The position numbers and the translations under genes are program-made. Shown piece by piece: positions 23,928-56,552 of a DNA stretch of 64,000 bases. The stretch comes from an uncultured Solibacteraceae bacterium (GTDB lineage Bacteria; Acidobacteriota; Vicinamibacteria; Vicinamibacterales; SCN-69-37). The stretch covers positions 2,428 through 66,427 of the forward strand of contig CAZAZR010000004.1 of NCBI GenBank assembly GCA_964489685.1. The letters run 5' to 3'. The notes below the pieces were generated by a model that worked only from the letters and a program-made list of their open reading frames with translations, searched no databases and was not told where the DNA came from. How positions within the stretch are numbered: the first letter of the stretch is position 1; each line of letters begins with the position of its first letter.

Positions 23928-23948
23928 GGCGCGAATTATAATCGACGA

Positions 23949-38458: not shown

Positions 38459-38560
38459 CGGGCTGCTGCAGAAGCATTCACACGCGGCATGAAGGCATTG
38501 TAGGTGCCGAGCCTCGGATCCTTCATGCCTCGTGTGGGGATCTTTGAGCAGGCTCTGAGA

Positions 38561-39517: not shown

Positions 39518-39554
39518 TGTTGGCGAAGGCTAGTATACGGCGTAGACTCGGCCC

Positions 39555-41003: not shown

Positions 41004-41017
41004 ACGGGAGTGAGCGA

Positions 41018-41890: not shown

Positions 41891-43263
41891 GCATCCTCAT
41901 CACCGGCGGCCGCATCATCACGGCCACCGACGACTACGTCGGCGACATCTTCATCGAGGACGATCGGATCACGGCCATTGGCACGACGCTGCCCATGAAG
42001 GCCGATCGCACGATCGACGCGCGCGGCAAATTCGTCTTCCCCGGCGGCATCGACGTACATACGCACCTCGACATGCCGTTCGGCGGGTCCACATCGGCCG
42101 ACGACTTCGAGACGGGCACCATCGCCGCCGCCTTCGGGGGCACCACATCAATTGTCGACTTCGCCATCCAGTACAGGGGCCAGACGTTGCACCATGCCTG
42201 GGAGACGTGGATGAAGAAGGCCGACGGGAAGGCGGCCATCGACTACGGATTCCACATGATCATGACCGAGCTCAACGATCAGGTGGAACTGGAGATGGAC
42301 GCGCTGGTGCGGCAAGGCGTGACGTCGTTCAAGCTGTTCATGGCCTACCCCGGCGTGTTCATGCTGGACGATGCGAGCATCTTCAAGGCGATGTTGCGGA
42401 CTGGACAAAACGGCGGGACGATCTGCATGCACGCCGAGAATGGCGGCGTGATCGACGTGCTGGTGCAGCGGGCGCTGGCCGAAGGCAAGACCGCGCCGAA
42501 GTATCACGCGCTCACGCGGCCTGCCCGAGCCGAAGGTGAGGCTACCCACCGGGCGATCGCGTTGGCGGAGATGGCCGACGTGCCCGTCTACATCGTGCAC
42601 TTGTCAGCGGCCGAAGCCCTGGAGATGGTGACCGAGGCCCGCGACCGGGGCCTGCCGGCGTTTGCCGAAACGTGTCCGCAGTACCTGTTCCTGTCGTACG
42701 ACAACTACGAGGAGCCCGGCTTTGAAGGCGCCAAGTACGTGATGAGTCCGCCGCTCAGGCAGAAGGAGACACAGAACCGGCTCTGGCGCGGGTTGGCCGG
42801 CAACGACCTTCAGGCGATCGCCACCGACCACTGCCCCTTCTGTATGAAGGAAAAGCATCTTGGGGACGGAGACTTTTCGAAGATTCCGAATGGTGCGCCC
42901 GGGATCGAGACGCGCATGAGCCTGGTGTATGACGGGGGCGTGCGGACAGGGAAGATCTCGTTGAATCGGTTCGTGGAGCTCACGTCCACCTCGCCGGCAA
43001 AGATCTTCGGCCTGTTTCCGCGAAAAGGCACAGTGGCGCCCGGGTCCGATGCCGACCTCGTGATCTTCGATCCCGAGAAGACGATGACACTGCGGGCGAA
43101 GACGCTGCACATGAACGTGGACTACAACCCGTACGAAGGGCGCGAGGTCACCGGCGTGACCGAGACGGTATTGTCGCGAGGTCGAGTCATCATCGATGGG
43201 GGCACGTTCACGGGCCGCCCGGGCGCCGGATCCTTTATCAAACGTCAGCCGAGGTTACTGTGA
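41887..43263 (+). CDS. hydA: Dihydropyrimidinase (D-hydantoinase)
   Basis: 458 aa with 'ILITGGRIIT', 'PGGIDVHTHLDMPFGG' and 'SFKLFMAY' (carboxylated-Lys region). Overlaps the upstream gene by 4 nt. Confidence 0.9.
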   Translation: MSILITGGRIITATDDYVGDIFIEDDRITAIGTTLPMKADRTIDARGKFVFPGGIDVHTHLDMPFGGSTSADDFETGTIAAAFGGTTSIVDFAIQYRGQTLHHAWETWMKKADGKAAIDYGFHMIMTELNDQVELEMDALVRQGVTSFKLFMAYPGVFMLDDASIFKAMLRTGQNGGTICMHAENGGVIDVLVQRALAEGKTAPKYHALTRPARAEGEATHRAIALAEMADVPVYIVHLSAAEALEMVTEARDRGLPAFAETCPQYLFLSYDNYEEPGFEGAKYVMSPPLRQKETQNRLWRGLAGNDLQAIATDHCPFCMKEKHLGDGDFSKIPNGAPGIETRMSLVYDGGVRTGKISLNRFVELTSTSPAKIFGLFPRKGTVAPGSDADLVIFDPEKTMTLRAKTLHMNVDYNPYEGREVTGVTETVLSRGRVIIDGGTFTGRPGAGSFIKRQPRLL

Positions 43264-44588
43264 TGGGGAACAGTGGAAGCATGAGCGGCCCGGAAATGAT
43301 CGCGCTTTCCAAACGCCACACCATTTTCGAATGGTCCGCTCAGGGCGCGATGGATCCGATTCCGGTGGCGCGGGCCAGCGGCGTCTACTTCTACACCCCT
43401 GACGGCAAGCGGTACCTCGACTTCAACAGCCAGTTGATGTGCGTGAACATCGGTCACGGCGACGTCCGGGTCGTCAAGGCTATCGAAGCCCAACTTGCCG
43501 TGCTGCCGTACGCCAACCCCTTCATGGCCACAGAGTCGCGGGCGAAGCTGGGCGCGACACTGGCGGGTGTGACGCCCGGAGACATCGACTGCTTCTTCTT
43601 CACGAACGGTGGAGCCGAGGCCAATGAAAACGCGATCAAGATCGCGCGCGCGTACACCGGCCGCCAGAAAATCCTGGCGCGATATCGCTCGTATCACGGC
43701 GGCACGGCGGCGGCCATTGCCGTCACGGGCGATCCTCGACGATGGACCGAACCCCCGATGCCGGGCATCGTGCATGTCCTGCATCCGTACCACGGCATCG
43801 AACGGGGCTGGGAGTCGGCGGCCGAGGCCCTTGAGTATCTCGAGGAAGTCATCCAGCTCGAAGGGCCGAAACAGATCGCCGCATTTATCCTCGAGCCCAT
43901 TACCGGCACAAACGGCATTCTGATTCCGCCAGACGGCTACCTCGAAGGCGTTCGGGCCATTTGCGACAAGTACGGAATCCTCATGATCTGCGATGAGGTC
44001 ATGTCGGGATTTGGCCGCACTGGCGAGTGGTTCGCTGTTGATCACTGGAATGTCGTGCCCGACCTGATGACCATGGCGAAGGGGCTGACGAGCGCGTACG
44101 TCCCCCTGGGCGCCGTTGGCCTGCGCCGACACATCGCCGATCATTTCGCCGAGAGGGTGTTCCCGAGCGGCCTGACCTACAACAGTCACCCGCTGGGATG
44201 CGCTGCGGCACTGGCCACACTCGCGGTCTACGAAGAAGATGGCCTCATCGCCCGCGCGAAGGCACGGGGTGTGCTGATGCAGTCGCTGCTCGAGGACCTG
44301 GCGGCGAAGCACCCTTCGGTCGGCGCCGTTCGCTCCATCGGCCTGTTCGGCATTGTTGAACTTGTGCGCGACAGGGCGAAGAAGGTCCCACTGGCGCCCT
44401 TTGCCGGGTCGGCACCGGAAATGTCCGCACTCGGACGTTTCTTCAGAGACGAGGGGTTATACACATTCGTCCGGTGGAACTCGTTCTTCACGAATCCACC
44501 GTTGACGATCACCGAGGACGAGCTGCGCGAAGGCTTCGCGATTATCGATCGCGGCCTGGCAATCACGGATGCCGCAGTGCAAGACTAG
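43260..44588 (+). CDS. Class-III (omega) aminotransferase, probable beta-alanine/beta-aminoisobutyrate:pyruvate transaminase
   Basis: 442 aa. Contains 'DFNSQLMCVNIGHG', 'ILEPITGTNG', 'DEVMSGFGRTG' and 'MAKGLTSAY' (PLP Lys). The start is GTG 43260 or ATG 43263, overlapping the hydA stop. Confidence 0.8.
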   Translation: MMGNSGSMSGPEMIALSKRHTIFEWSAQGAMDPIPVARASGVYFYTPDGKRYLDFNSQLMCVNIGHGDVRVVKAIEAQLAVLPYANPFMATESRAKLGATLAGVTPGDIDCFFFTNGGAEANENAIKIARAYTGRQKILARYRSYHGGTAAAIAVTGDPRRWTEPPMPGIVHVLHPYHGIERGWESAAEALEYLEEVIQLEGPKQIAAFILEPITGTNGILIPPDGYLEGVRAICDKYGILMICDEVMSGFGRTGEWFAVDHWNVVPDLMTMAKGLTSAYVPLGAVGLRRHIADHFAERVFPSGLTYNSHPLGCAAALATLAVYEEDGLIARAKARGVLMQSLLEDLAAKHPSVGAVRSIGLFGIVELVRDRAKKVPLAPFAGSAPEMSALGRFFRDEGLYTFVRWNSFFTNPPLTITEDELREGFAIIDRGLAITDAAVQD

Positions 44589-44592
44589 TGGC

Positions 44593-45342
44593 ATGCGGCT
44601 ACTGACAGCAGTCTTCGCCCTTGTGGCGACGCTGCCCGGCCTCGCGATGGCGCAGCCACCCGATCCGCCTCGGGCTGAACTCGGCGTTCAGGTGTCCACA
44701 CAGACCGGGCAGGCACGTGCGGTCACGTGGTCTCCACAAATCACACTGAACCTCACGCCGATCACGGCGATTGAGGGCTCAGCGGACTTCCAGCTCGCGA
44801 GGACCGATCCCTTCGGCACGCGCACATCGGGGCGGGCGTTCAGTCTGCACTGGCGCCAGGCGCTGTTCACCTCGGGGCGCTGGCTGGTCTTCGGCGTGTT
44901 CGGCGCGGGCGACAGTCGGCAAGTCTTCGAGTTTCCGGAGCGGATCGTGGAAGGGCGTGACGGCCCCGAAATGTTCCCGGCGCAAAAGTACGTTGATACC
45001 GGTCTGGCCGTCCAGCTGGGACCGGCCGTGCAGTTCGAGGCTGCACCCTGGCTGGCGCTGCGCGGCGACCTGCGCCTCACTGCGGGCGACAACGGCGGAC
45101 TGCGGGGCATGGTGGGGGCAGTGGTTCCGGTCGGGCGCTTCCGCGCGGGCGACCGGCCGGGCGTGTCCAGTCAGACGCCGCCCCTGGCCGCCTGGCATCG
45201 TCTGAAGGCGGGACGCGAAGTGTGGGTCACCACCTCGTCTGGAGCGTTGGTGCACGGCGAGGTGTCAACGATTTCCGACCGCAGCCTCGGTGCGTTGCGC
45301 AAAACCGACTGGCCGGCTCACGTACGAGCCAGGTCGATATAG
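44593..45342 (+). CDS. Hypothetical exported protein (outer-membrane beta-barrel-like)
   Basis: Start trimmed to MRLLTAVFALVATLPGLAMAQ (signal peptide), followed by an alternating beta-strand pattern. The 3' end overlaps the convergent gene by 25 nt. Confidence 0.45.
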   Translation: MRLLTAVFALVATLPGLAMAQPPDPPRAELGVQVSTQTGQARAVTWSPQITLNLTPITAIEGSADFQLARTDPFGTRTSGRAFSLHWRQALFTSGRWLVFGVFGAGDSRQVFEFPERIVEGRDGPEMFPAQKYVDTGLAVQLGPAVQFEAAPWLALRGDLRLTAGDNGGLRGMVGAVVPVGRFRAGDRPGVSSQTPPLAAWHRLKAGREVWVTTSSGALVHGEVSTISDRSLGALRKTDWPAHVRARSI

Positions 45343-46547
45343 TTCGTCACCAGCAGGCCGGTCAGCACAATGAACAGCGTCAAGGCCAGCGCGCGGCGCT
45401 CGGCGAGCAGGTCCTGCACCTCGGGCTGGGCCAGCCAGAAGGCCAGACAAAACGCGGCTGGAAACAACAACCCGAAGTCGAACAGATACGGGTGAATCGA
45501 TACCGCCTGGGGAAACACGACGATCCAGAGGAGAGCTGGCGACCAGCAGAAGAGGAGCTGCCGGAACATGCGCGCGGCCAGAGGCCGAGCGAGCGCGAAG
45601 GTGCCGGCCGCCACGGCAGGGGCGGTTGCGATCAGCGGGTAGAAGCGCCAGTCTCTCCCACCTGCATCAAACGGGTGGGTCACGGCCTGAAGCATGGAGG
45701 TGAAGTACTGAGTGCCGCCATCGAGACCCGACCTGAAGAAGACGCTGCTCCCGATACCCCGCCAACCACCAAGCCACACCATCACGTACGGAATGACAAT
45801 GCCAAGGGCGATCAGGACGCCAAAGATGAGCCCTTGCGACCGCCAGCCCTCCCACCGTACGCCTGCAAACCTGGTCCCGCCCAATGGTGTGGCGAAGAAG
45901 ACAAGGGTGATAAACAGGCACGCGGCATACATCGGCGCAATGAGGGCGACGCCCACCACGGTGAGGAATCCCGCTCGGCCAAGCGGCCTTGCCTGAAAAT
46001 CGAGCACGCTGATGAACGCCACGCCGATTGCGGCGAGGAACCGGTGGTGGTCCTCAGGATTTCCGACGATCGAGGCCACCCAGAGCGAAGGCAGCGTGGC
46101 GACGACCGAGAAACCCAGCACGACCAGGGGAAACCAGATCATCCACATGGCCACAGGGTCGGTCGGGCTGTCGCGGTGCGACAGCGACAGCGCGGCTGAG
46201 ATCATCCACAACAGGACGCCGAAAGTCAGGAATACAACGACGTTCTGGCCGGTCGCATAGGGCACGCCCAGCCACGTCAGCGGCTTCATGAAGACATACA
46301 CAAACCCCAGCCACGCCGGAGTCAGATGCTGATAGGCGCGCCCGAGCGCCACATCCTCCGGGACGTTGAACGACAGTCCCAGATGGCGGGTGACAGACGT
46401 GTTATCCCAATAGCCAAACGTCGTCGGCAGCATGACGTACTCGCTTGGAGACGTGAGCGCGCGTCTCATACTGCCCAGCTGAAGGCCGAGACCTGCCGAC
46501 ACGAGACACGCGATCAGCACGAGGGCGGGCAGAGTCGCGCGTTTCAT
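45318..46547 (-). CDS. Polytopic membrane protein (about 10 helices; Wzy / GT-C-like role is possible but unsupported)
   Basis: 409 aa, strongly hydrophobic throughout, with no recognised motif. Sits at the edge of the glycosyltransferase/PqqD cluster. Confidence 0.55.
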   Translation of the reverse strand: MKRATLPALVLIACLVSAGLGLQLGSMRRALTSPSEYVMLPTTFGYWDNTSVTRHLGLSFNVPEDVALGRAYQHLTPAWLGFVYVFMKPLTWLGVPYATGQNVVVFLTFGVLLWMISAALSLSHRDSPTDPVAMWMIWFPLVVLGFSVVATLPSLWVASIVGNPEDHHRFLAAIGVAFISVLDFQARPLGRAGFLTVVGVALIAPMYAACLFITLVFFATPLGGTRFAGVRWEGWRSQGLIFGVLIALGIVIPYVMVWLGGWRGIGSSVFFRSGLDGGTQYFTSMLQAVTHPFDAGGRDWRFYPLIATAPAVAAGTFALARPLAARMFRQLLFCWSPALLWIVVFPQAVSIHPYLFDFGLLFPAAFCLAFWLAQPEVQDLLAERRALALTLFIVLTGLLVTNYIDLART

Positions 46548-46620
46548 GCCGAGAGCTTATAGCAGGTCTTCCACCCACGGACCGCCTTGACTCCACTCCG
46601 TCCAGCCGCGTACAACCAGA

Positions 46621-47712
46621 TTGATGCGTCGAGACTGGCGGCCCGATGCACCACAGGAACTCCTGCTCCGTGCGGCCCTGTGCGAGACACCTGCCGCCCT
46701 GACGGCATGGCGCGAGTGGCAGGCCGCTGCCGACCACGATGGCCTGGACTGGGGTTCGCGACGGTTGCTGCCGCTCGTCCATGACAGTGTCGGGGAGCCG
46801 CAGGATCCGCAGACGTGGATCGAGAACCAGTTGCTCTTCCAGGAAACGGCATCGCTCGTCACCTTGCTGCGTGAGGTGGGTATTGAAGTCCTGGTGCTCA
46901 AGGGCGTTGCACTGGCTGTGCTCTACTACCAGGATGCCGCGCTCCGGCCGATGACCGACGTCGATCTGCTCGTGCGGCCCGAGGACGCCGGCAGGGCAAT
47001 CGCCGCGATGCTGGGAGCCGGGTGGACCACTCGTTACCGTGTTCCAGAACGCCTGATTCCGTTTGGGCGAACGGTGGAGCTTCGGAATGGCAACGGGACA
47101 CTCTGCGATTTACACTGGCGGGCATTCCGACAGGGACGGCATCGAGAAGATGACGATCTGTGGGAACGCGCGATCGGACTGGAAGTGGCGGGTACGGCTA
47201 CACACACGCTCGAAGCCGCAGACCAGTTGCTGCTGGTCTGTGTCCACGGCACGGACTGGAACGACATGCCCTCAATACGCTGGGTCGCTGATGCCACGAT
47301 GCTCATCCGCGCTCGTGTGGACTGGCCACGGGTCGTCGAGCACACACGAGGCCGACGCCTCATGCTGCAGATGGTCGATTCGCTGACGTATCTACAGCAC
47401 TTCGCGACCGTACCTGGCGCCGTACTGGACACGATTCGACGAATGCCCGTGACGCGCCTGGAACGCCTCGACTACCGGGCCCGAACCAGCCCGAATCCGG
47501 CGCTGCATTCGCTTCTGCTCGTGGCGTTCTGGGAACGGTGCTGGCGTGTTCTTCCGGAGCGCCGATTCGGGAGAAAGGTCACGGTGTTCCTGCGTTATTT
47601 GCAGTCGCTCTGGAACGTCGAGCACCTGTGGCAGACGCCGTTTCGGCTGTTCTACAAGTGCCTGGAAGTGTCGGGTCGGATGATCTTTCGATCCTCAGCC
47701 CGACATCTGTGA
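46621..47712 (+). CDS. Uncharacterised nucleotidyltransferase family protein (NTP_transf_5 / PF14907-like)
   Basis: 363 aa. 'VLVLKGVALAVLYYQDAALRPMTDVDLLVRPEDAGRAIAAMLGAGW' fits the family core (LKG...R...D.DLLV). Confidence 0.7.
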   Translation: MMRRDWRPDAPQELLLRAALCETPAALTAWREWQAAADHDGLDWGSRRLLPLVHDSVGEPQDPQTWIENQLLFQETASLVTLLREVGIEVLVLKGVALAVLYYQDAALRPMTDVDLLVRPEDAGRAIAAMLGAGWTTRYRVPERLIPFGRTVELRNGNGTLCDLHWRAFRQGRHREDDDLWERAIGLEVAGTATHTLEAADQLLLVCVHGTDWNDMPSIRWVADATMLIRARVDWPRVVEHTRGRRLMLQMVDSLTYLQHFATVPGAVLDTIRRMPVTRLERLDYRARTSPNPALHSLLLVAFWERCWRVLPERRFGRKVTVFLRYLQSLWNVEHLWQTPFRLFYKCLEVSGRMIFRSSARHL

Positions 47713-47832
47713 GAGTTGCCGCATGTTGCCATGGCGGGTGATCCGCGGCTTGCTCCAGACCTTCGCAGCTTTGGTTCCCGCACCAGCAACGGTGCCGGCT
47801 TTCGGTGTGCTTGGCTTGCCAGCTGGTTTCAT
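47695..47832 (-). CDS. Candidate small peptide gene (45 aa; possible RiPP-type or RRE-recognised peptide)
   Basis: Hand-translated as MKPAGKPSTPKAGTVAGAGTKAAKVWSKPRITRHGNMRQLSQMSG*. An AGGA lies 7 nt upstream of the ATG, and an in-frame TAG lies 4 codons upstream. It is below the 60-aa cutoff of the ORF track. Residues W26-x2-P-x-I-x3-G-x5-S-Q match the spacing of the lasso leader motif. Codon usage is atypical (several A/T-ending codons). Confidence 0.4.
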   Translation of the reverse strand: MKPAGKPSTPKAGTVAGAGTKAAKVWSKPRITRHGNMRQLSQMSG

Positions 47833-47846
47833 AAAATGATCCTAAC

Positions 47847-48983
47847 ATGCGAGGTCTAATCAGCACATGTCTCATCGTGCGCAACGAAGAACAGCTGCTT
47901 GCCAATTGTCTGGCGAGCGCGGCTCCTTTCTCTGATGAAATCGTCGTTGTGGATACCGGGTCCACGGATCGGACGCCGGATATCGCGCGGTCGTTCGGCG
48001 CGCGACTGATCCGCAAGTCCTGGATGAACTACAGCGATGCGCGCAGCACCTACATCGAAGCCGCACGATGCCGATGGATTCTCGTGCTCGACGCCGACGA
48101 AGCCATTGCCCCCAGGGACCACGGGGCCGTCGTCCGGCTTGCCAGAAGCCGGACGCCTATCGGCTACCGGCTCACGGTCAGGAACTACACCGACGAACAC
48201 GACCTCATGTGGCGATGGTTCCCCAACGATCGCCGCTATCTGAAGGAGGAACGGTTCTCGCAGTGTTCCGGCTGGATGAAGACTCGCGCGTTGCGCCTGT
48301 TTCGGAACCTGCCGGCTGTTCGCTACCAGGAGGGCCCCACGCCACATCCGACACCGCTCGAGTCGTTGAAGCAGCACCGAGGCCTGATTGAGGACTGCGA
48401 CGACGTCACGATCCACCATTTTCAGTACCTGAAGGGCGGCGCCAGATTCGTCGCCGCCAAACAACGTGAGCGCCTGAAGGGGGAACGCGCGCACCTGAAG
48501 CGCTTTCCCGGGCAGACGTACCCGTACCTCAACGTGGCCCGGACTCTCTTCGCAGAAGGCCGCGATGCCGAGGCGCTCAGGCACCTGAATCGGGCGCTGA
48601 AACACGACCCGGAGTTTCATGACGCCTGGCAGCTCCATGGGATGATCGACTTCGAAAACGGACGGTACCGGTCCGCCGAGCGGGCCCTGCGCCGTGCGAT
48701 TGCAATCGACCCCGGCTCTTCCGACGCCTGGGCGTTGCTCGGCATGGTGCTGGTGGACGCGGGCGAACCGGTTGCGGCCCGTGAGGCACTGCAGACAGCG
48801 ATCGGCCTCCACCCGGGCCACTTGCTCGCGCACAACTCGCTCGGCGTGCTCTATGAGGACCTCGGCCATCAGACCCGGGCGCGCCGGCAGTTCAGGACGG
48901 CCATGCGTCTCCACCCCGGATTCAGGCCAGCCTCTGCGAACCTGCGGCGCCTTGAGCGCTCTCTCGGGAAGACCCGCGCATGA
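47847..48983 (+). CDS. Family-2 glycosyltransferase fused to C-terminal TPR repeats
   Basis: N-terminal 'ISTCLIVRNEEQLLANCLASAAPFSDEIVVVDTGSTDRT' and 'LVLDADE' (DxD). The C-terminal ~130 aa form TPR-like repeats (DAWQLHGMIDFENGRY..., DAWALLGMVLVDAGE...). Confidence 0.8.
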   Translation: MRGLISTCLIVRNEEQLLANCLASAAPFSDEIVVVDTGSTDRTPDIARSFGARLIRKSWMNYSDARSTYIEAARCRWILVLDADEAIAPRDHGAVVRLARSRTPIGYRLTVRNYTDEHDLMWRWFPNDRRYLKEERFSQCSGWMKTRALRLFRNLPAVRYQEGPTPHPTPLESLKQHRGLIEDCDDVTIHHFQYLKGGARFVAAKQRERLKGERAHLKRFPGQTYPYLNVARTLFAEGRDAEALRHLNRALKHDPEFHDAWQLHGMIDFENGRYRSAERALRRAIAIDPGSSDAWALLGMVLVDAGEPVAAREALQTAIGLHPGHLLAHNSLGVLYEDLGHQTRARRQFRTAMRLHPGFRPASANLRRLERSLGKTRA

Positions 48984-50200
48984 CCCTGCGCCGACTGGCC
49001 GGCCGTTGGCTCCGACGGCTCGGCTGGAGGCGATCCACCGACAGACAGGCACCGCGCGTGCGAGCATCCGAACGCCTGCGCGACGTCCCGACGAAAGTCA
49101 CGATTCGAGACGATCGGACCCTCCTGGTTAACGGCGAGCCGTTTTTCCCGAACGGCCTGTATTACGCCAGAGACCAGATCGCGGATGCGAGTGGGGATGG
49201 CCTGCGCGCCTTGCGCGACATGGGATTCAACAGCGTCTTTGTGGATGGCGACATCGAGTCGGTCGATGACCTCGACCGCATCCATCGCGCGGGCTTGTAC
49301 GTCTGCTGTCGGCCTGGAGGACGCCTCTACAGCCAGTTCCAGCATCTAAAAACCATCGTCGCCATCTACGGGGCTCACCCGGCACTGCTCTTCTGGGAGA
49401 TGGACGATGAGCCGGTGCTCAATCATGTGCCGCTGGAGGAGACGAAGCAGGGTTGCCAACTGGTTCGCGCCATCGACCCGTTTCATCCTATTCTCTGCAA
49501 CCAGTGGCTCTCGACGATGGCTGAAGAGCAGGAGATGCGCGACTGGGGACAATTGGCTGACGTTTATGGCTTCAGTTGCTACCCGGTTCCCTCGGCGCGA
49601 TGGGGCAGCCGGATGCGGCTGGTCGAAGAGGGCTGGCCGCACTCGATCGCGGTGGTGGGCACGCAGACGAGGGCCTGGCGGTCATACGCCCCAGGCAAGC
49701 CCATCGTACCCGTGCTGCAGGCGTGGGCGTGGAACTGCCTCGAGGATGGCGACGCGGCGTATCCGTCGCTTCACGAGGCGCGCTTCATGACGTACCAGGC
49801 GGTCATTCAGGGTGCGAATGGCCTTCATCACTATGGCGTGGTCAATCCGACCCGGCCACATCTTGCTTGCGGCATCCCCCCGGTGCTGCGCGAGGACCTC
49901 GACCGTACCCACGCCGACTTCGAGGAGGCGCAGTGGCGCAACCGGATCTTCTGGACGTACTATTCGTCCGTGGTTGAGGAGATCGCGCGCATGGGCGCGG
50001 TGTTCACCTCACGCGACAGTGAATGGCGGCCAGGGCCCCTGCCCGCTTCCATTGAATATCGCGTGAAGCACCATGATGGGATGAACGTGATCCTGCTGGT
50101 GAACGCGTCGGCCGAACCGGTGGCGCTGCGGATTGAGGGCGTCACCGACGAGGTCGTCGAGGGGTTCGGCGTCAGGGTCTATTCAGGAGGAACACGGTGA
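48980..50200 (+). CDS. Hypothetical protein, TIM-barrel glycoside-hydrolase-like
   Basis: 406 aa. 'LVNGEPFFPNGLYY', 'GFNSVFV' and 'LLFWEMDDEP' resemble clan GH-A features ([ND]-E-P acid/base). ATGA overlap with the upstream gene. The assignment is tentative. Confidence 0.4.
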   Translation: MTLRRLAGRWLRRLGWRRSTDRQAPRVRASERLRDVPTKVTIRDDRTLLVNGEPFFPNGLYYARDQIADASGDGLRALRDMGFNSVFVDGDIESVDDLDRIHRAGLYVCCRPGGRLYSQFQHLKTIVAIYGAHPALLFWEMDDEPVLNHVPLEETKQGCQLVRAIDPFHPILCNQWLSTMAEEQEMRDWGQLADVYGFSCYPVPSARWGSRMRLVEEGWPHSIAVVGTQTRAWRSYAPGKPIVPVLQAWAWNCLEDGDAAYPSLHEARFMTYQAVIQGANGLHHYGVVNPTRPHLACGIPPVLREDLDRTHADFEEAQWRNRIFWTYYSSVVEEIARMGAVFTSRDSEWRPGPLPASIEYRVKHHDGMNVILLVNASAEPVALRIEGVTDEVVEGFGVRVYSGGTR

Positions 50201-50472
50201 TTCCGACGAAACACAGGCACGTGAAGTGGAAGAAGACCGGCTCAACCGGCGTGCTGTTGAATCTGGTGAGTGGTGACTATTACGAACTGGACGGCACTGC
50301 GATCGCGATCTGGAACGCCATCGATGGCCGGACGCCGGTGGCGGGGATCGTCAGAAAGATCGCGACCGCGTACCGTGTGGCGCCAAAGACCGTGGAAAAA
50401 GACGTGACGAGCTTCCTGGCGGCACTGCACAAACGAACACTCATTCAGTCGATCGGAGGGCACGGGCTTTAG
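50197..50472 (+). CDS. PqqD family protein (RRE-type peptide-binding chaperone), copy 1
   Basis: 91 aa with a GTG start overlapping the upstream stop (GTGA). 'VLLNLVSGDYYELDGTAIAIWNAIDGRTPVAGIVRKIATAY...VEKDVTSFLAALHKRTLI' fits the PqqD pattern. Confidence 0.75.
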   Translation: MIPTKHRHVKWKKTGSTGVLLNLVSGDYYELDGTAIAIWNAIDGRTPVAGIVRKIATAYRVAPKTVEKDVTSFLAALHKRTLIQSIGGHGL

Positions 50473-51185
50473 CCCGTACCATACCGGCGCCGAATGGCCT
50501 CGTCGCGGATCTTGTTGACGTCGCGATGCCAGTTCCGGTCGGTCTGCGTGAGGCTCGATGGGTGACGACGCCAGAGGTAGTAGACCTCTCCCCGCAGATA
50601 TTTGAAACGAGCCACCTCGGCCACTTTCATCCAGAGGCTCCAGTCATCCACTGAATACACCGACTCGTCATAGCCGCCAACCTGACGAACCAGAGCCGTG
50701 CGGCTCAATGACCCTGCGTGGTTGACGGTGTTTTCGACCAGGTCCCAGGCGGCATGGGCATCCTTGCCATGGATCGCGGCCGGTCCAAGCACTCGGTTCC
50801 TGCCGTCCGTCATGACCTCCAGCACCGCCCCATACACGACGCCAATCTTCGGATGTGCATCCAGGTAGTCACTGAGGCGTCGCAGGGCGCCCGGCAGCAA
50901 CAGGTCGTCGGCATCACAGGGCATCACGTATCGGCCGCGCGCAAGCGACAGCAGCCGGTTCCTGGTCGCGCCGGCGCCGCGGTTCGTGTCATTCCGAAAC
51001 AGCCGGACCTTCTCGTGTCCCGCATACTTCTGCAAGCGCTGCCACGTCGCATCGCACGACGCGTCGTCGACAATCAGGAGTTCGAAGGAGCCGAACTTCT
51101 GGGCCAGAACACTCTGAATGGCCTCGTCAATAAATGTCGCAGCATTAAACGCCGGCATCGCGATGGTGACCTTCATCCGCCCCAC
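50469..51185 (-). CDS. Family-2 glycosyltransferase
   Basis: 'VTIAMPAFNAATFIDEAIQSVLAQKFGSFELLIVDDASCDAT' and 'CDADD'. Overlaps the upstream asnB-like gene by 13 nt. Confidence 0.85.
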   Translation of the reverse strand: MGRMKVTIAMPAFNAATFIDEAIQSVLAQKFGSFELLIVDDASCDATWQRLQKYAGHEKVRLFRNDTNRGAGATRNRLLSLARGRYVMPCDADDLLLPGALRRLSDYLDAHPKIGVVYGAVLEVMTDGRNRVLGPAAIHGKDAHAAWDLVENTVNHAGSLSRTALVRQVGGYDESVYSVDDWSLWMKVAEVARFKYLRGEVYYLWRRHPSSLTQTDRNWHRDVNKIRDEAIRRRYGTG

Positions 51186-52888
51186 CTCCGCTGCCAGCTT
51201 TCGAACATGAACAGTGTCCAGAACTTGTACCCGTGCACACGCTCGAGCCGGTCGTGTTCGCGCTGCATCCGTTCGAGCATCATCATGTCGAACAACCCGC
51301 GTCGGCGCAGCGAATCACTGAACACCGTGTCGTAGACCATATCGCGCCACGGTCCCTTCTCCCAAAGCCACACGTCCATCGGAATGCTGAAGCCCTTCTT
51401 GGGACGCTGGAGGACCTCGCTCGGCAACATGTCTCTCATGGCTTCGCGCAGCAGGTACTTCCGGACGCCGCTGCGGACCTTCATCTGATCCGGAAGCCGC
51501 AGGGCGAACTGCGCAAGCTGGTGGTTGAGAAACGGCACCCGGAGTTCCAGTGAGTGCATCATCGAGACGCGGTCGGACTTGAGCAGGATGTCGGACGGCA
51601 GGTACGTCTTCAGATCGTCCAGGAGTGAGTGCTTGAGGGGCGAGAGTCCATGAGCCGGTGCGGGACGTCGCTTCGTCCGCCTCCACACTGACGCGTACAG
51701 CTGGTCGCGCTCCTCCCGGGTGAAGACCGCCCGCGATGGATGACCATCCGACCGGCGCGACCCGTGCCAGGGATACCCACCAAATAGCTCGTCAGCCCCT
51801 TCGCCTGACAACGCGGTCTTCACGACCTGACTCGCCGCCTGGCACACAGCGAACATCGGGATCGACGACGAATCTGCGAATGGCTCGTCAAAGTGTTCGA
51901 TCAATTGGAGCGCAATCTCAGTCGCCGTCGACTTCGTGACCAGAACCTCGTGGTGCCGTGTGCCGAACCGCTTCGCCACCAACCGCGCCCAGGGGCCCTC
52001 GTCGAAGTCGCCCTCTCGGAACGCCGCCGAAAACGTGTGCAGCCTGGTTTCACTCGCGCGCGAGGCGACCGCCGTGACCGTGCTCGAATCGAGTCCGCCG
52101 CTCAGTAACACACCGACCGGGACATCACTTCTCAGGCTGATGCGAACGCTTCGCTCGATCTCGTTCTGCAGTCGGGCCACCGGATTGGCGAGTGGCCTCC
52201 TGCTGGCAATTTCTGGCACCGGGTTCCAGTACCGCGTCTGCTTCACGCGGCCCCGCCTCACGGTCAGGACATGCCCTGGTGCAAGTTTGTGCACATGCCT
52301 GAACACCGTCTGCGGCTCCGGGAGCGCGAGTGTGCCGAAATAGCTGTCGAGGGCGCCCCGATCGAGTGCGCGATCCACACCGCGATATTGCAGCAGTGCC
52401 TTCAACTCCGAGGCGAACAGGAAGGCCGACTGGTCATGGTAGTAGTACAGCGGCTTCACGCCAAACCGATCGCGGGCGAGATACAACGAGTCGGCTGCCT
52501 CGTCCCAGATCGCGATCGCGAACATTCCCTCGAGGCGCAGAAAGCCGGCCACGCCCTCGGCCGCGAACAATCTCAGGATCACTTCCGTGTCGCTGCGGGA
52601 CACGAACTGGTGGCCCGACTCCTCGAGTTCGCAACGCAGTTCAACGTAGTTGTAGATTTCGCTGTTGGACACAAGGCGCAGGGGGCGGGGGCCCCGTAGT
52701 GTCATGGGCTGTGCGCCACCCGCCGCATCGATGATCGAGAGGCGCCGGTGCCCCAGGCCAACGGCGCCATCAAAATGAAACCGCTCATCGTCGGGCCCGC
52801 GGTGCGCGAGCGCGCGCGTCATCCGCCGCACAAGCGCGCGATCAACGGGCGTCGCATCGAACTTCACCTGACCGCTGATACCGCACAT
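51173..52888 (-). CDS. asnB: Asparagine synthase (glutamine-hydrolysing) family amidotransferase
   Basis: 571 aa. Intact N-terminal nucleophile MCGI, 'HRGPDD', 'RRLSIID' and the PP-loop 'LLSGGLDSS'. Confidence 0.85.
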   Translation of the reverse strand: MCGISGQVKFDATPVDRALVRRMTRALAHRGPDDERFHFDGAVGLGHRRLSIIDAAGGAQPMTLRGPRPLRLVSNSEIYNYVELRCELEESGHQFVSRSDTEVILRLFAAEGVAGFLRLEGMFAIAIWDEAADSLYLARDRFGVKPLYYYHDQSAFLFASELKALLQYRGVDRALDRGALDSYFGTLALPEPQTVFRHVHKLAPGHVLTVRRGRVKQTRYWNPVPEIASRRPLANPVARLQNEIERSVRISLRSDVPVGVLLSGGLDSSTVTAVASRASETRLHTFSAAFREGDFDEGPWARLVAKRFGTRHHEVLVTKSTATEIALQLIEHFDEPFADSSSIPMFAVCQAASQVVKTALSGEGADELFGGYPWHGSRRSDGHPSRAVFTREERDQLYASVWRRTKRRPAPAHGLSPLKHSLLDDLKTYLPSDILLKSDRVSMMHSLELRVPFLNHQLAQFALRLPDQMKVRSGVRKYLLREAMRDMLPSEVLQRPKKGFSIPMDVWLWEKGPWRDMVYDTVFSDSLRRRGLFDMMMLERMQREHDRLERVHGYKFWTLFMFESWQRRWGG

Positions 52889-52910
52889 AAACGCGTGTTA
52901 GGATTCTACC

Positions 52911-53195
52911 GTGATGAGCAGCCTGCGTGGCCGTGTGCCGGCCAGAGGCGAATCGGTTCAGTGGCGTGAGTTCGGCGCAGAGGCCATCCTGCTCGACCCG
53001 GTGACCGGTCAGTTCGCACAAGTCAACGACTCAGGGATGGCCATCTGGGCCCGCATCGACGGGTGTCGAACGATCGAGGACATCGGCCGGGAGATCGCCG
53101 GGGAATGTGAAGTCGATCCAGCGGACATTGTGACGGACGTTCAGGCGTTCATCGATGACTTGGTCGACAAGCGCCTGCTCACACTCGCGTCATGA
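52911..53195 (+). CDS. PqqD family protein (RRE-type), copy 2
   Basis: 94 aa, starting at GTG 52911 or ATG 52914. 'AILLDPVTGQFAQVNDSGMAIWARIDGCRTIEDIGREIAGECEVDPADIVTDVQAFIDDLVDKRLL'. Confidence 0.75.
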   Translation: MMSSLRGRVPARGESVQWREFGAEAILLDPVTGQFAQVNDSGMAIWARIDGCRTIEDIGREIAGECEVDPADIVTDVQAFIDDLVDKRLLTLAS

Positions 53196-54136
53196 CCGAC
53201 GCCTTCCGCATCGCCGGCGTGGAGATTCACGTCGAGACGGACGACGGCGCGCTCCGCGCACTGGTCATGACACATTGGGAGCCCTTTGCCGTTGGCCGCG
53301 CAGGCCGGCGCAAGCCCGGCGCCATCTTCCGTTTTACCGACCACGGTGGTCCGACGCTGTCCCGCCTGAAGACCTGGGCCTCCTTCTCGAACGACCGGGT
53401 CATCTTCCTCACCGACGGGAAGCGCTACCTCCTGACGGGCTATTGCTATGACCGTCCGTGGCAATTCGATTGCCGATCGCTGCCGGCGTGGAACGCCGAT
53501 TTCGTTTATTACTACGTCTTCGAACCGGTGTTGCACGACGTGCTGAAGCGCCTGGGTGTGCTCGCCTGGCACTGCGCGGCACTGGAGCGAGGGGGGGCCG
53601 CAGCCCTTCTTCCTGGAGTATCGGGCAGTGGAAAATCCACCACCACCCTCAACCTGCTCACCTGCGGGTTCCGCTTTATGGCTGACGACGCGGCGTTCTT
53701 GCGAGTGAAGGGGCGAACGCTGGAGGTATTCGGGCTCGACACGGGCGTCTATGTGACGGAGCGGTCGTTGCGCCTGCTGCCAGAGTGGCGTCCATCCGTT
53801 CTACCCGGCCGGCATCGAAAGGGTCGGCAATGGAAATACCACGTGAACCTGACAGATCGACGATCGAAGCGCCGTTCGCCGCCTATCGTGAAGTACTTGT
53901 TGTTCCCGCGAATTGCAGAAGGCCTCACCACGAGGATCGAGAGGCTCACACCAGCTGAGGCCCTGCTCGAGTGTCTGAAGCAGACGCCCAAGGAGTTCCC
54001 CTCGTCGCTCATCGGACCAGCGGCCGTCGAGGCACAGTTCGAGATCTATTCCCTCCTCTCGCGTTCAGCCGCCGCTTATCGAGTGCATCTGGGCTCCGAT
54101 CAGGATGGAGTTCGGACCGCACTCTCGCGCCTCTGA
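53192..54136 (+). CDS. HPr-kinase-like (HprK-related) P-loop kinase
   Basis: 314 aa. 'HCAALERGGAAALLPGVSGSGKSTTTLNLLTCGFRFMADDAAFL' matches the HprK C-terminal catalytic-domain pattern. ATGA overlap with the PqqD gene. Confidence 0.7.
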   Translation: MTDAFRIAGVEIHVETDDGALRALVMTHWEPFAVGRAGRRKPGAIFRFTDHGGPTLSRLKTWASFSNDRVIFLTDGKRYLLTGYCYDRPWQFDCRSLPAWNADFVYYYVFEPVLHDVLKRLGVLAWHCAALERGGAAALLPGVSGSGKSTTTLNLLTCGFRFMADDAAFLRVKGRTLEVFGLDTGVYVTERSLRLLPEWRPSVLPGRHRKGRQWKYHVNLTDRRSKRRSPPIVKYLLFPRIAEGLTTRIERLTPAEALLECLKQTPKEFPSSLIGPAAVEAQFEIYSLLSRSAAAYRVHLGSDQDGVRTALSRL

Positions 54137-55227
54137 TGAGCGTGCCCATTCTGTTCGAGATCCATCCCGCCACCTTTGGCGGCACCGAACGTTTTCTCTC
54201 GCTGCTGCTTCCACGCCTGGACCGGCGCCGCTTTGCGCCCATGGTGATTGCACCGCGAGCCGGTGCGCCTCTCGCACGTATTGCGGCCCTCGGAGTACCG
54301 ACCGTGGTCGTCGAGCACTATTTCTCGCAACGCGGCATCCGGGCGATTGCGAGCGTCATCCGGGAACACCGAATCGGCCTGGTGCAGTCGAACTACTACG
54401 CCTCACACCTGGCGATGGCGGCCAACCTCGCGGAGGTGCCACACATCTGGCGCCTGGGCGGGCACGTCGGCGTTGGCAGCGGCGCGAGCAGCGTCGCGGA
54501 CGAACATTTGACGCTCAAGATGATTCAACTGCTTTCACAGGTGGTCGTCTGCAACTCCCAGTTCATCCGCCACCAGTTCGGCCGCGCCAAGGCGTCGGTC
54601 CAGGTCATTCCGAACGGCGTCGAGATTCCCCCTGTTCGACCAGGGCGCAACCGGCAGGGACCGTACCGGATCGGCATGATTGCCCACTTCACGGCACAGA
54701 AGCGGCATGAGGACTTCATCGAGGCGGCCGCCGCGGTTGCCTCCGGGCGCGACGACGTGACGTTCACGATCCTCGGTCGCGAGTATGCACACGGCGAGAG
54801 CCGCCGCTATGCGGCCCGGATGCGGCGCCTTGCTCGCGACGTGCCTCGAGTGACCCTGGGCGAGTTCTCCGACGGCCACGCGGCTCGAGATTTCGACATC
54901 CTTGTGCTGCCGTCGATCGGCGAGAGTCACAGCAATGCCGTGCTCGAGGCCATGGCGGCGGGCGTGCCCGTCGTTGCTGCCCGATCGGGCGGTAACGCTG
55001 AGTTGGTGCGGCACAAGGTAACGGGCCTTCTGGTCGCTCCGCAGCATCCTCAGGCGCTGGCCAAGGCTGTGATCGCCCTCCTTGATGCCCCGTCAACGCG
55101 TCAGGCCATGGGTGCGGCTGCCCGTACAGATGCGCGTGACAGGTTCTCGATTGGCGGCTGCGTCAGGCGGTATGAGAATCTCTATCGCACGATCCTGCGA
55201 GGGACACTCCCTACGGCCGAATCGTGA
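54136..55227 (+). CDS. Family-4 (GT-B) glycosyltransferase
   Basis: Start trimmed to MSVPILFEI (TGATG overlap with the kinase stop). N-terminal 'FGGTERF' and the C-terminal 'LPSIGESHSNAVLEAMAAGVPVVAARSGGNAELV' EX7E region. Confidence 0.85.
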   Translation: MSVPILFEIHPATFGGTERFLSLLLPRLDRRRFAPMVIAPRAGAPLARIAALGVPTVVVEHYFSQRGIRAIASVIREHRIGLVQSNYYASHLAMAANLAEVPHIWRLGGHVGVGSGASSVADEHLTLKMIQLLSQVVVCNSQFIRHQFGRAKASVQVIPNGVEIPPVRPGRNRQGPYRIGMIAHFTAQKRHEDFIEAAAAVASGRDDVTFTILGREYAHGESRRYAARMRRLARDVPRVTLGEFSDGHAARDFDILVLPSIGESHSNAVLEAMAAGVPVVAARSGGNAELVRHKVTGLLVAPQHPQALAKAVIALLDAPSTRQAMGAAARTDARDRFSIGGCVRRYENLYRTILRGTLPTAES

Positions 55228-55834: not shown

Positions 55835-55911
55835 CAAGTTAACACGAGCGCGGCCAACGAAGGCGTGAACGGCCGGGTTGCCATCCATGCCAACCAGTCC
55901 GATAATGAGAC

Positions 55912-56133
55912 ATGCACATCGTAGGGCGACGAACCGTGGACGGCCACGCCCTCGCCGACCAGGGGGCGCTCGCCAGGACGGCGGCGTTGCTGCGCGGCAC
56001 CTCGGCGATCGTGCCTCGGGGCGTGTACCGATTCTCCAGCTTCGACGAGGCCGACACGTGGATGACCAACGCGATTCGGAGTACGCACGAGCGCCTGAGC
56101 CGGCCGACCTCCTCCGCCTCTGTCGGGCGCTGA
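55912..56133 (+). CDS. Small hypothetical protein
   Basis: 73 aa. The segment 'VPRGVYRFSSFDEADTWM' resembles a small conserved protein I recall seeing in other genomes. Overlaps the next ORF by 76 nt in another frame. Confidence 0.4.
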   Translation: MHIVGRRTVDGHALADQGALARTAALLRGTSAIVPRGVYRFSSFDEADTWMTNAIRSTHERLSRPTSSASVGR

Positions 56134-56552
56134 ATCACGAGGACGCACGGTACGTCCTGATCGGCGGCTTTGCCGTCATCGTGCATGGTGCCGGGCGCTT
56201 TACGAAAGACATCGATCTGCTGATTGATGACGCTCCCTCAAACGTGGCACGGGTCAAGCGGGCACTTGGCGTCCTCGCCGACAATGCGGCGGCGGACGTG
56301 CTCGACACCGACGTCCGGGATCACGTGGTCGTGCGCATCGCGGATGAAGTGGTGATCGACCTGATGGGTCGCGCCTGCGGGCTGTCGTACGAGGACGTCA
56401 TCAAGGATGCGGAGTGGTTCGATCTGGAAGGCGTCCGCGTGCCGGTGGCCAGTCCGGCCGCGCTGATTCGCACCAAGGACACGTACCGGCCGCAAGATGC
56501 GATCGACCGCGCGTTCCTGGAGGGGCTTCGTAAGAAGGACGACCGGCAGTAG
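56058..56552 (+). CDS. Small nucleotidyltransferase-fold protein
   Basis: 'LLRLCRALNHEDARYVLIGGFAVIVHGAGRFTKDIDLLID' is an NTase GG...D.D core. There is no ATG upstream of the core, so the nearest in-frame start is GTG 56058. Confidence 0.5.
   Translation: MDDQRDSEYARAPEPADLLRLCRALNHEDARYVLIGGFAVIVHGAGRFTKDIDLLIDDAPSNVARVKRALGVLADNAAADVLDTDVRDHVVVRIADEVVIDLMGRACGLSYEDVIKDAEWFDLEGVRVPVASPAALIRTKDTYRPQDAIDRAFLEGLRKKDDRQ

Follow-up and report, generated by a model that had tools for sequence, protein, structure and literature searches.

In a stretch of soil acidobacterial DNA, we identified a conserved 11-gene cluster that most likely phosphorylates, glycosylates and perhaps amidates a tiny ribosomal peptide, although this chemistry is inferred from sequence and structure predictions and there is no experiment on this cluster. 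The cluster, which lies in the 64,000-nucleotide window analyzed here, shares its core (a PqqD-type RiPP recognition element (RRE), an HprK-like kinase and an NTP_transf_5 nucleotidyltransferase) with the “linear polyphosphorylated peptides” (LPP), a peptide family first reported in 2026 and from Bacillota only (Popov et al., Nat Commun 2026, PMC13381572). However, it lacks the SpI-like peptidase that defines LPP clusters, it always carries an AsnB amidotransferase with an intact glutaminase site and three cytoplasmic glycosyltransferases (one of them GmaR/SunS-like), and in its main subtype (type 1) it also carries a GH-A-like enzyme with its own RRE and a GT-C-like membrane protein. A preliminary description of this region had inferred a hybrid pathway, in which a small peptide or a glycan carrier is recognized by RRE proteins, then phosphorylated, nucleotidylated or glycosylated, and amidated; this interpretation was supported, as each computational test it proposed came out in its favor.

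Table. Features of the cluster, with positions numbered along the window
Position	Strand	Size	Feature
45318-46547	-	409 aa	Multi-TM protein, about 11-12 helices, predicted GT-C-like fold
46624-47712	+		NTP_transf_5 (PF14907) nucleotidyltransferase; ORF opens at TTG 46621
47695-47832	-	45 aa	Predicted precursor/scaffold peptide gene, MKPAGKPSTPKAGTVAGAGTKAAKVWSKPRITRHGNMRQLSQMSG
47698-47757	-	20 residues	Conserved C-terminal 20-mer of the peptide (W26-G45), WSKPRITRHGNMRQLSQMSG
47847-48983	+		GT2 (GT-A) domain plus C-terminal TPR domain; candidate peptide glycosyltransferase
48980-50200	+	406 aa	Clan GH-A-like TIM-barrel protein (predicted)
50197-50472	+		PqqD-type RRE 1
50469-51185	-		Soluble GT2 glycosyltransferase; alternative start at ATG 51176
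51173-52888	-		AsnB-family glutamine-dependent amidotransferase
52911-53195	+		PqqD-type RRE 2
53192-54136	+		HprK/PEPCK-fold P-loop kinase (predicted peptide Ser/Thr kinase)
54136-55227	+		GT4 (GT-B) glycosyltransferase

All eleven ORFs and their domain assignments were confirmed with small corrections. The start/stop overlaps previously noted at 48980-48983, 50197-50200, 53192-53195 and 54134-54138 and the convergent overlap at 50469-50472 are exact; RRE 1 is translationally coupled to the GH-A-like gene, RRE 2 to the kinase, and the TGATG of the GT4 gene overlaps the kinase stop. Of the two short divergent junctions, the 14-bp one (47833-46) lies between the small ORF, which is on the minus strand, and the GT2-TPR gene, and the 22-bp one (52889-52910) between AsnB and RRE 2, while the gap between the membrane protein and the nucleotidyltransferase is about 76 bp. 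The 13-nt overlap described between AsnB and GT2 would instead be an ATGA overlap if GT2 starts at its alternative ATG. This arrangement is more than chance, as the same gene order recurs at 48-83% kinase identity in other Acidobacteriota.

Having confirmed the gene content, we then explored the 45-aa ORF, which proved to be a conserved gene that recurs at the same position and orientation in every related locus long enough to show it, 15 loci in all. It overlaps the 3' end of the nucleotidyltransferase gene by 18 nt, has an AGGA Shine-Dalgarno-like element about 7 nt upstream, and is called as an unnamed gene in public data. The peptide was present in 5 of 5 kinase-seeded loci long enough to show it (the related loci L001, L002, L004 and L007, plus L008 with a type-2 form), and a DNA-pattern scan of metagenomes gave 9 independent hits, with recognizable cluster genes beside the peptide in 8. 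Its last 19-20 residues are almost invariant (W/Y-x-K-P-x-I-x-R-H-G-N-M/L-R-x-L/M-T/S-Q-M-S-G/A), the stop position is conserved, and variation is overwhelmingly synonymous (340 synonymous versus 124 non-synonymous codon differences in the last 20 codons), which indicates purifying selection. A degenerate DNA pattern for this tail matched once in the window, against 0 expected.

Interestingly, this tail comprises a [W/Y]xxPx[I] motif, then RHGN, then L-[S/T]-Q-M-S-[G/A], and matches the lasso/LPP RRE-binding consensus [Y/W]xxPx[L/V/I/F/A] (PMC13381572). It also aligns with the LPP leader motif YxxPxVLxHQxIxFETxxS, which is cleaved after T16 and phosphorylated on S19, at positions 1, 4, 6, 9, 12, 16 and 19, placing Ser44 at the experimentally phosphorylated Ser3 of LPP. 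Notably, position 19 is Ser only in type 1, whereas type 2 has Glu (…MTQLE) and one outlier (L047) has Cys, yet their kinases keep the P-loop; Ser44 therefore cannot be the universal phospho-site.

Both PqqD ORFs are RRE-type (PF05402, E 3.5e-18 for RRE 1 and 1.5e-16 for RRE 2), with the lasso B1 proteins TbiB1 and TfuB1, PqqD and the “lasso peptide biosynthesis PqqD family chaperone” 9x90 as their nearest solved relatives. For RRE 1, the best PDB hit was TbiB1 (E 5e-7) and the best NCBIfam hit was the lasso PqqD chaperone, below its cut-off; RRE 2, related to PqqD, 9x90, TfuB1 and TbiB1, is the one retained in all subtypes. The kinase was weak by sequence (Hpr_kinase_C 22.9 bits, below the cut-off of 33.3; TIGR04352 55.8, below 200), but its P-loop SGSGKSTT is invariant in 27 homologues, a profile hit HPr kinases 1ko7 and 1jb1 at E 1e-5, and a confident AF2 model (pLDDT 91.6) matched PEPCK (E 4e-10) and HprK 1knx (E 4e-6) in Foldseek. 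The nucleotidyltransferase (PF14907, E 9e-38) has the G...DVD Pol-beta-type motif, is conserved in all subtypes, belongs to the same Pfam family as LppN of the LPP clusters, and also sits next to a lasso B2 protease in L015. HprK-like kinases phosphorylate precursor Ser in paeninodin, and PF14907-type nucleotidyltransferases add hexoses to phospho-Ser in pseudomycoidin (reviewed in PMC8498205), although the PF14907 enzyme of the published LPP system showed no activity in the heterologous host, so its chemistry is unproven there too.

Among the remaining enzymes, the GT2-TPR protein, always divergent from the peptide gene, has as its nearest solved GT-A domains the flagellin O-GlcNAc transferase GmaR (E 7.7e-18) and the peptide S-glycosyltransferase SunS (E 7e-10). 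The second GT2 (PF00535, E 7e-29) is 53-83% identical in related loci of both subtypes, and the GT4 (Glyco_trans_1_4, E 4.5e-26) is always directly downstream of the kinase. AsnB (Asn_synthase, E 5e-101, plus GATase_7) is, as previously suggested, of a true-amidotransferase type: it scored 494 bits against TIGR01536 (above the cut-off of 267) but 265 against the lasso cyclase model NF033535 (below 525), its best match was TIGR03108 (522, below 817), and its N-terminal MCG nucleophile and SGG[LV]DS PP-loop are conserved in six loci, including type 2. It also scored well against AsnO-type TIGR03104 (N-acetylglutaminylglutamine amidotransferase, 411 bits, below cut-off), a family that appears to amidate a dipeptide. 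The GH-A-like protein, present only in type-1 loci together with RRE 1, had no Pfam or NCBIfam hit and no evident signal peptide, but carries the invariant motif FWEMDDEP, and a 5-sequence profile hit GH158 (9oro, E 2e-6), GH5 mannanases and GH2 TIM barrels. The membrane protein, found in L001, L004, L007, L042, L044 and L045, had no Pfam hit but has conserved FRSGLDG and SIHPYxxD loops; for its AF2 model (pLDDT 84, pTM 0.87), seven of the nine best Foldseek hits, including the top seven, were GT-C enzymes (STT3B with prob 1.0 and TMq 0.54, AftA, STT3A, AftD and ALG9). This GT-C assignment is tentative, as the E-values are weak (0.015-0.16) and no invariant first-loop acidic residue was seen. 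In L007, a DUF2142/PMT_2 protein is added next to it.

We consider an RRE-dependent, RiPP-like pathway of the LPP/paeninodin tailoring type the most likely explanation, with reasonable though not high confidence. We infer that the peptide is the substrate, that its [W/Y]xxPxI motif docks onto the PqqD-type RREs, and that RRE 2 presents the tail to the coupled kinase, which phosphorylates a hydroxyl residue in L-[S/T]-Q-M-S, most likely Ser44 (motif position 19) or alternatively Ser/Thr41 (position 16). The nucleotidyltransferase and the GT2-TPR, GT2 and GT4 enzymes would then add sugar(s) to that phosphate or to the peptide, yielding a phospho-glycosylated linear peptide, and AsnB would use glutamine-derived ammonia to amidate an ATP-activated carboxylate, either the C-terminal one of the peptide (the only carboxylate in the conserved type-1 tail) or one on a sugar acid. 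In type-1 clusters, a second RRE may recruit the GH-A-like enzyme for glycan trimming or remodeling, while the GT-C-like protein, and the ABC exporter that follows RRE 1 in L004 and L007, may act at or across the membrane. The order of these steps and the final product are likewise inferred; the cluster has no leader peptidase, and the window has no exporter.

The glycosyltransferases, AsnB and the GT-C-like protein could nevertheless serve a glycan that is never attached to the peptide. In such a peptide-independent glycan or cell-surface glycoconjugate cluster, these proteins and the GH-like enzyme would build an amidated oligo- or polysaccharide, and the PqqD/kinase/nucleotidyltransferase/peptide module would only regulate or accompany it, for example as a phospho-switch or chaperone. 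Four glycosyltransferase-type genes and a GH-like gene dominate the cluster, the best NCBIfam matches of AsnB and GT4 are the XrtA/PEP-CTERM EPS-associated families TIGR03108 and TIGR03088 (both below cut-off), and LPP and paeninodin clusters in Bacilli are themselves embedded in capsule loci with an unknown role. However, we consider this unlikely, as no priming phosphoglycosyltransferase, Wzx, Wzy, Wzz or Wza, or other flippase, polymerase, chain-length or export genes were found in the window or in the flanks of relatives, which differ from genome to genome (IS elements in L002), and the peptide and an RRE are retained in every subtype, with RREs coupled to the kinase and the GH-like enzyme and a GT2-TPR resembling protein/peptide glycosyltransferases.

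Two other readings appear less probable still. With pearlin-like logic, the 20-mer would be a pure recognition handle and a small molecule would be assembled on its last one to four residues, then released by a protease encoded elsewhere; only 2-4 residues follow the leader-type [S/T]-Q position (MSG, MSA, LE), the N-terminal part varies in length and composition (Lys-rich in type 1, Pro/Ala/Glu-rich in type 2), and AsnB-type activation of a C-terminal carboxylate would fit such chemistry. This remains doubtful, since the cluster has no peptidase and no aminoacyl-tRNA-dependent ligase, most of its enzymes are glycosyltransferases, and nothing here indicates release. A decayed or non-canonical lasso-peptide cluster, in which AsnB acts as a cyclase (for example by joining the C-terminus to a Lys side chain), could account for the lasso-type leader motif, B1-type RREs, AsnB homologue, kinase and nucleotidyltransferase known from paeninodin-type clusters, and the Lys-rich N-terminus. 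It is already largely refuted, because the core after the leader is 3 residues with no Asp/Glu in type 1, there is no Transglut_core3 B2 protease, AsnB passes the asparagine-synthase equivalog cut-off, fails the lasso-cyclase model and keeps the glutaminase Cys, and the gene and its stop codon are under purifying selection across orders, so this is not decay.

The preliminary description had found no known class to fit the cluster, which needs updating given that LPP is a close published analogue. Beyond the shared core and motif, an MsbA-like ABC exporter is present in some relatives (L004 and L007) and the association with glycosyltransferases is shared. In contrast to LPP, the motif here sits at the extreme C-terminus, with one residue after the putative phospho-Ser instead of a variable core, AsnB, GT2-TPR, GT2 and GT4 are fixed core genes, and the host phylum is Acidobacteriota, whereas LPP was described as restricted to Bacillota. 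Paeninodin/pseudomycoidin-type lasso clusters similarly combine a leader motif, a B1-type RRE, an HprK-like kinase acting on a Ser near the C-terminus of the linear precursor, a nucleotidyltransferase that glycosylates the phosphate, and an AsnB-family gene, but here the B2 protease is absent, the AsnB is not of the lasso cyclase type, and the core is far too short for a lasso. The “HPr-rel-A system” (TIGR04352 kinase A, TIGR04353 PqqD chaperone), a name raised in the preliminary description and present in NCBIfam, and the SynChlorMet cassette ScmC/ScmD also pair a PqqD-family chaperone with an HprK-related P-loop protein, and a broad, multi-phylum set of PqqD-HprK-like-GT2-NTP_transf_5 cassettes exists. 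The window proteins score far below those models' cut-offs (55.8 against 200; 17.1 against 35), and those cassettes, as sampled here, lack AsnB and a detectable peptide of this family. Finally, the GT2-TPR protein shares with SunS and GmaR an N-terminal GT-A domain fused to a TPR-type substrate-binding domain, with only a weak hit to the SunS model TIGR04195 (37.7 against a cut-off of 350), but its inferred substrate is delivered with separate RREs, has no Cys, and is not a helix-hairpin glycocin.

The preliminary description of this region as a compact block of eleven tightly packed ORFs was confirmed, and the four start/stop overlaps, the convergent overlap, and the 22-bp AsnB/PqqD divergent junction that it listed were all exact. 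Some details needed adjustment: the 14-bp junction lies between the small ORF, which is on the minus strand, and the GT2-TPR gene; the divergent gap between the membrane-protein and NTase genes is about 76 bp; and the GT2 gene may start at a downstream ATG, which would give an ATGA overlap with AsnB rather than the 13 nt reported. Pfam and NCBIfam searches identified NTP_transf_5 (E 9e-38), two PqqD proteins (E 3.5e-18 and 1.5e-16), AsnB (Asn_synthase, E 5e-101; TIGR01536, 494 bits against a cut-off of 267), GT2, GT2+TPR, and GT4. No solved structure matched the NTase by sequence. Three further assignments required additional work. The kinase scored below the Pfam and NCBIfam cut-offs, but its P-loop is invariant in 27 homologues, its profile hits HPr kinases in the PDB, and a structural model with pLDDT 91.6 matches PEPCK and HprK folds. 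The 406-aa protein has no family hit, while a 5-sequence profile matches GH158, GH5, and GH2 TIM barrels, and the protein carries an invariant FWEMDDEP motif. The 409-aa membrane protein was modelled confidently (pLDDT 84, pTM 0.87) and its seven best structural matches are all GT-C glycosyltransferases (STT3B, AftA, STT3A, AftD, and ALG9), though the E-values are weak and no invariant first-loop acidic residue was seen.

Having established the gene content, we then searched for related loci. The kinase has about 39 close homologues (48-83% identity), essentially all from Acidobacteria MAGs, and the longer loci keep the same gene order, including those from an Acidobacteria bacterium (locus L001), from two further relatives (L002 and L004), and from Pyrinomonadales (L007); a short Vicinamibacterales fragment (L006), at 82% identity, also shows a consistent gene order. 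The flanks differ in every genome. In L002, the cluster copy is bracketed by IS66- and IS110-family transposase genes with a PKS locus beyond, which suggests that the cluster moves as a unit. L004 and L007 insert an ABC exporter after PqqD1, L004 adds an epimerase, and L007 adds a DUF2142/PMT_2 membrane protein. Besides this main form (type 1), a diverged subtype that we call type 2 (L008, L043, and L045; kinase about 36% identical) keeps the peptide, one PqqD, the kinase, NTase, GT4, GT2-TPR, GT2, and AsnB, but lacks the GH-like/PqqD1 pair. Judged by eye, the type-2 locus L045 appears to add an oxygenase resembling PhyH-type Fe(II)/2-oxoglutarate dioxygenases.

Coordinates of the cluster, its junctions, and other features in the window and in related loci
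Sequence	Position	Strand	Feature
Window	3607-6734	-	PIN-domain protein, Fic/DOC-domain protein, and SelO-type protein adenylyltransferase in a row
Window	22506-23927 / 23241-26075	- / +	Overlapping TonB-dependent receptor and amidohydrolase ORFs
Window	34941-44588		Run of genes resembling a reductive pyrimidine/hydantoin catabolism set: cytosine/purine/uracil-type permease, DHO_dh-like protein, aldehyde dehydrogenase, CN-hydrolase, amidohydrolase, and class-III aminotransferase
Window	45318-55227		Eleven-ORF cluster
Window	47695-47832	-	Small ORF (peptide)
Window	48980-48983		Start/stop overlap
Window	50197-50200		Start/stop overlap
Window	50469-50472		Convergent overlap
Window	51176		Alternative ATG start of GT2
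Window	53192-53195		Start/stop overlap
Window	54134-54138		Start/stop overlap
Window	55878-56552	+	AbiEii-like nucleotidyltransferase ORF
Window	55888		Start of the divergent cyclophilin
Window	57837-60629	+	Large Ser/Thr protein kinase fused to PD40/WD40-like beta-propeller repeats
Window	61569-63893	-	Large Ser/Thr protein kinase fused to PD40/WD40-like beta-propeller repeats
L002	1-317 and 12233-13270		IS66- and IS110-family transposase genes
L015	9086-14293		Thermodesulfovibrionia locus encoding a peptide with a lasso-type leader
L020	10013-10309		Small ORF in a Sandaracinaceae locus
L045	3071-3900	-	Extra ORF between the kinase and PqqD
L047	1383-1505		Outlier peptide

The small ORF is the key finding. 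The window peptide is MKPAGKPSTPKAGTVAGAGTKAAKVWSKPRITRHGNMRQLSQMSG, and the same gene lies divergent from GT2-TPR and convergent with the NTase in L001, L002, L004, and L007. A degenerate DNA pattern for the conserved tail matches once in the window, against 0 expected, and gave nine hits in the metagenome collection, eight of which lie next to recognisable cluster genes, while the ninth contig (L041, 1.1 kb) holds little more than the peptide. The N-terminal half varies in length and composition, whereas the last 20 residues are almost invariant (W/Y-x-K-P-R/K-I-T-R-H-G-N-M-R-Q/R-L-S/T-Q-M-S-G/A). Across ten distinct DNA versions, the last 20 codons show 340 synonymous against 124 non-synonymous codon differences, with 54, 98, and 404 differences at the three codon positions, respectively, and the stop codon is fixed. 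Type-2 peptides end …Y-x-K-P-T-I-S/A-R-H-G-N-L-R-M/L-M-T-Q-L-E. One outlier from a contig of only 2 kb (L047), MFAKRKYVKPQIKRHGNLRSITQLCPIERAPRKRKRG, which has a PqqD gene next to it, shows the same leader-type motif but has Cys at motif position 19 and a basic 12-residue extension (…T-Q-L-C-P-I-E-R-A-P-R-K-R-K-R-G). The window peptide is present, unnamed, in public protein sets, but protein-database searches with the peptide returned very few hits (4 in one search, and 5 among 1.8 billion representatives in another), and the family is therefore rare or rarely called; the DNA-pattern scan was more productive. A promoter/terminator scan around the peptide gene found nothing and is uninformative.

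We also looked for similar peptides in about 30 distant PqqD-HprK-GT2-NTP_transf_5 cassettes, using relaxed motif and HMM searches, and found only those of L008 (type 2), a Thermodesulfovibrionia locus (L015), and possibly a Sandaracinaceae locus (L020), while the other hits look like chance. The L015 peptide, …FIEPKLIKHGDATKITAGFFGGFSPSA, has a lasso-type leader and a 10-11-residue core with no acidic residue, and beside it lie an HprK-like kinase, a GNAT, a radical-SAM enzyme, PqqD, a B2 protease (Transglut_core3), and NTP_transf_5, with no AsnB seen among the ORFs scanned (about 5-15 kb of the locus), so that this looks like another linear, kinase-tailored RiPP variant. The small ORF in L020 reads …KLRYEAPRITRKRSLTRAVLFSGGATTGTSSSGATATGLTADG, lies about 2.3 kb from an HprK-like gene, and may be a related precursor with a long Gly/Thr/Ser core. 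Such PqqD-HprK-like-GT2-NTP_transf_5 cassettes form a broad multi-phylum set, and the cluster studied here is thus one branch of a larger and mostly unexplored superfamily.

Previous work offers close points of comparison. HprK-like kinases phosphorylate the C-terminal Ser of linear paeninodin-type precursors, and a nucleotidyltransferase adds hexoses to that phosphate in pseudomycoidin (reviewed in PMC8498205). More recently, Popov et al. 2026 (PMC13381572) defined the linear polyphosphorylated peptides (LPP) in Bacillota, whose precursors carry YxxPxVLxHQxIxFETxxS, are cleaved after T(-1), and are polyphosphorylated on core Ser3. The LPP clusters are embedded in capsule loci, and their transferase, which the supplement of that study equates with Pfam NTP_transf_5 (and the RRE with PqqD), was inactive heterologously. 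The acidobacterial tail aligns in register with the LPP motif at seven positions (aromatic at position 1, P4, aliphatic 6, H9, hydrophobic 12, T/S16, and S19), which puts window Ser44 at the LPP phospho-Ser position, although here the motif is C-terminal and only 1 residue follows S19. Both PqqD proteins are nearest to lasso B1 RREs, PqqD, and a "lasso peptide biosynthesis PqqD family chaperone" structure, and the GT-A domain of GT2-TPR is nearest to GmaR (flagellin O-GlcNAc transferase) and SunS (peptide S-glycosyltransferase).

Overall, the cluster appears to work like an LPP/paeninodin tailoring system, and it shares with LPP a discrete PqqD-type RRE, an HprK-like kinase, and an NTP_transf_5 transferase in one cluster, but it is not a member of LPP as defined. 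The SpI peptidase is absent, as no peptidase domain was found in any cluster gene, among the other ORFs of the window scanned against Pfam, or in L001, L002, or L004; only one residue follows the putative phospho-site; and the MsbA-like ABC exporter is missing from the window cluster, though it is present in L004 and L007. Nor is this a lasso BGC. The tail does carry the lasso-type leader pattern (W26-x-x-P-x-I...G...S41-Q42) recognised by B1 RREs, but only MSG/MSA/LE follows the leader position, which is too short for a 7-9-residue macrolactam with Asp/Glu at position 7-9; the B2 transglutaminase-like leader peptidase (PF13471) is absent; and AsnB scores only 265 bits against the lasso cyclase model NF033535 (cut-off 525) and keeps Cys1. 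Membership of the HPr-rel-A system (NCBIfam TIGR04352/TIGR04353) was rejected on the curated cut-offs (kinase, 55.8 against 200; PqqD1, 17.1 against 35; no hit for PqqD2), which a distant betaproteobacterial cassette (L031) also fails. The GT2-TPR protein likewise falls below the SunS-family cut-off (TIGR04195, 37.7 against 350), and the peptide has no Cys, unlike a glycocin precursor. A classical Wzx/Wzy- or ABC-dependent EPS/O-antigen locus was rejected because no priming phosphoglycosyltransferase, flippase/polymerase or ABC pair, chain-length regulator, or outer-membrane export genes occur among the ORFs of the 64-kb window scanned against Pfam or in the ±10-kb flanks of L001, L002, and L004. 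We found no paper describing the acidobacterial cluster.

Mechanistically, we infer that the [W/Y]xxPxI tail of the peptide most likely docks on the RREs, and that RRE 2 presents it to the translationally coupled kinase, which would phosphorylate Ser44 or Ser/Thr41. The PF14907 enzyme and the GTs would then build sugar(s) on the phosphate or the peptide, and AsnB, which has an intact glutaminase Cys and PP-loop in both subtypes, would amidate an activated carboxylate; in type 1, the only carboxylate in the conserved tail is the C-terminus. RRE 1 is inferred to recruit the GH-A-like enzyme, a pair found only in type 1, while the GT-C-like protein, and the ABC pump where present, likely act at the membrane. 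Several points weigh against these details, as position 19 is Glu or Cys in other subtypes, no peptidase or exporter is found among the window ORFs scanned against Pfam, the PF14907 activity is unproven even in LPP, and the glycan enzymes could in principle work independently of the peptide. If this reading is right, RRE/HprK-kinase/PF14907-based peptide tailoring extends beyond the Bacillota, to which the LPP family was said to be restricted, into abundant and largely uncultured soil Acidobacteriota. It would also offer a minimal natural substrate, a 20-residue invariant tail with essentially no core, that could help work out what the PF14907 transferase does. The fixed association with three glycosyltransferases, a true amidotransferase, an RRE-coupled GH-like enzyme, and a GT-C-like membrane protein points to a phospho-glycopeptide chemistry that has not been described, and gives a concrete, testable link between RiPP machinery and glycan biosynthesis.

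Other explanations appear less likely. A peptide-independent glycan cluster with a regulatory RRE/kinase module is improbable though not excluded, being weakened by the lack of any priming or export machinery among the ORFs and flanks scanned and by the obligate retention of the peptide and RRE, and a scaffold-peptide route to a released small molecule seems more doubtful still. A decayed or non-canonical lasso cluster is very unlikely, as it is contradicted by purifying selection, the 3-residue "core", the absent B2, and the amidotransferase-type AsnB. With low probability, the ribosomal peptide might act as a protein-phosphate primer or carrier for glycan assembly, in which the kinase plus PF14907 transferase would create a Ser/Thr-O-phosphate-sugar linkage playing the role normally taken by undecaprenyl phosphate plus a priming phosphoglycosyltransferase. 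In this scenario, the cytoplasmic GT2-TPR, GT2, and GT4 enzymes would extend the chain on the peptide, with AsnB amidation, and the GT-C-like membrane protein would transfer or further decorate it at the envelope, providing a lipid-carrier-independent, RRE-guided route to a surface or secreted phosphoglycan in Acidobacteria.

Within the window, the cluster is an island. Upstream lie the pyrimidine-catabolism-type genes, which directly precede the cluster and are not part of it, and an unknown secreted protein, and downstream lie a cyclophilin, the AbiEii-like ORF, DUF2891, and the PD40 Ser/Thr kinases, while the rest of the window is housekeeping. None of the ORFs scanned against Pfam is a Wzx, Wzy, Wzz, Wza, signal-peptidase-like, B2, or ABC-exporter gene. 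The AbiEii-like ORF (Pfam E 1.8e-7), whose true start is uncertain and whose longest reading overlaps the divergent cyclophilin start by 11 nt, is not conserved next to the cluster in L001, so it is probably unrelated. Elsewhere in the window, the longest ORF of a TonB-dependent receptor overlaps an amidohydrolase ORF on the other strand by about 690 nt, and the real start of the receptor is probably further downstream.
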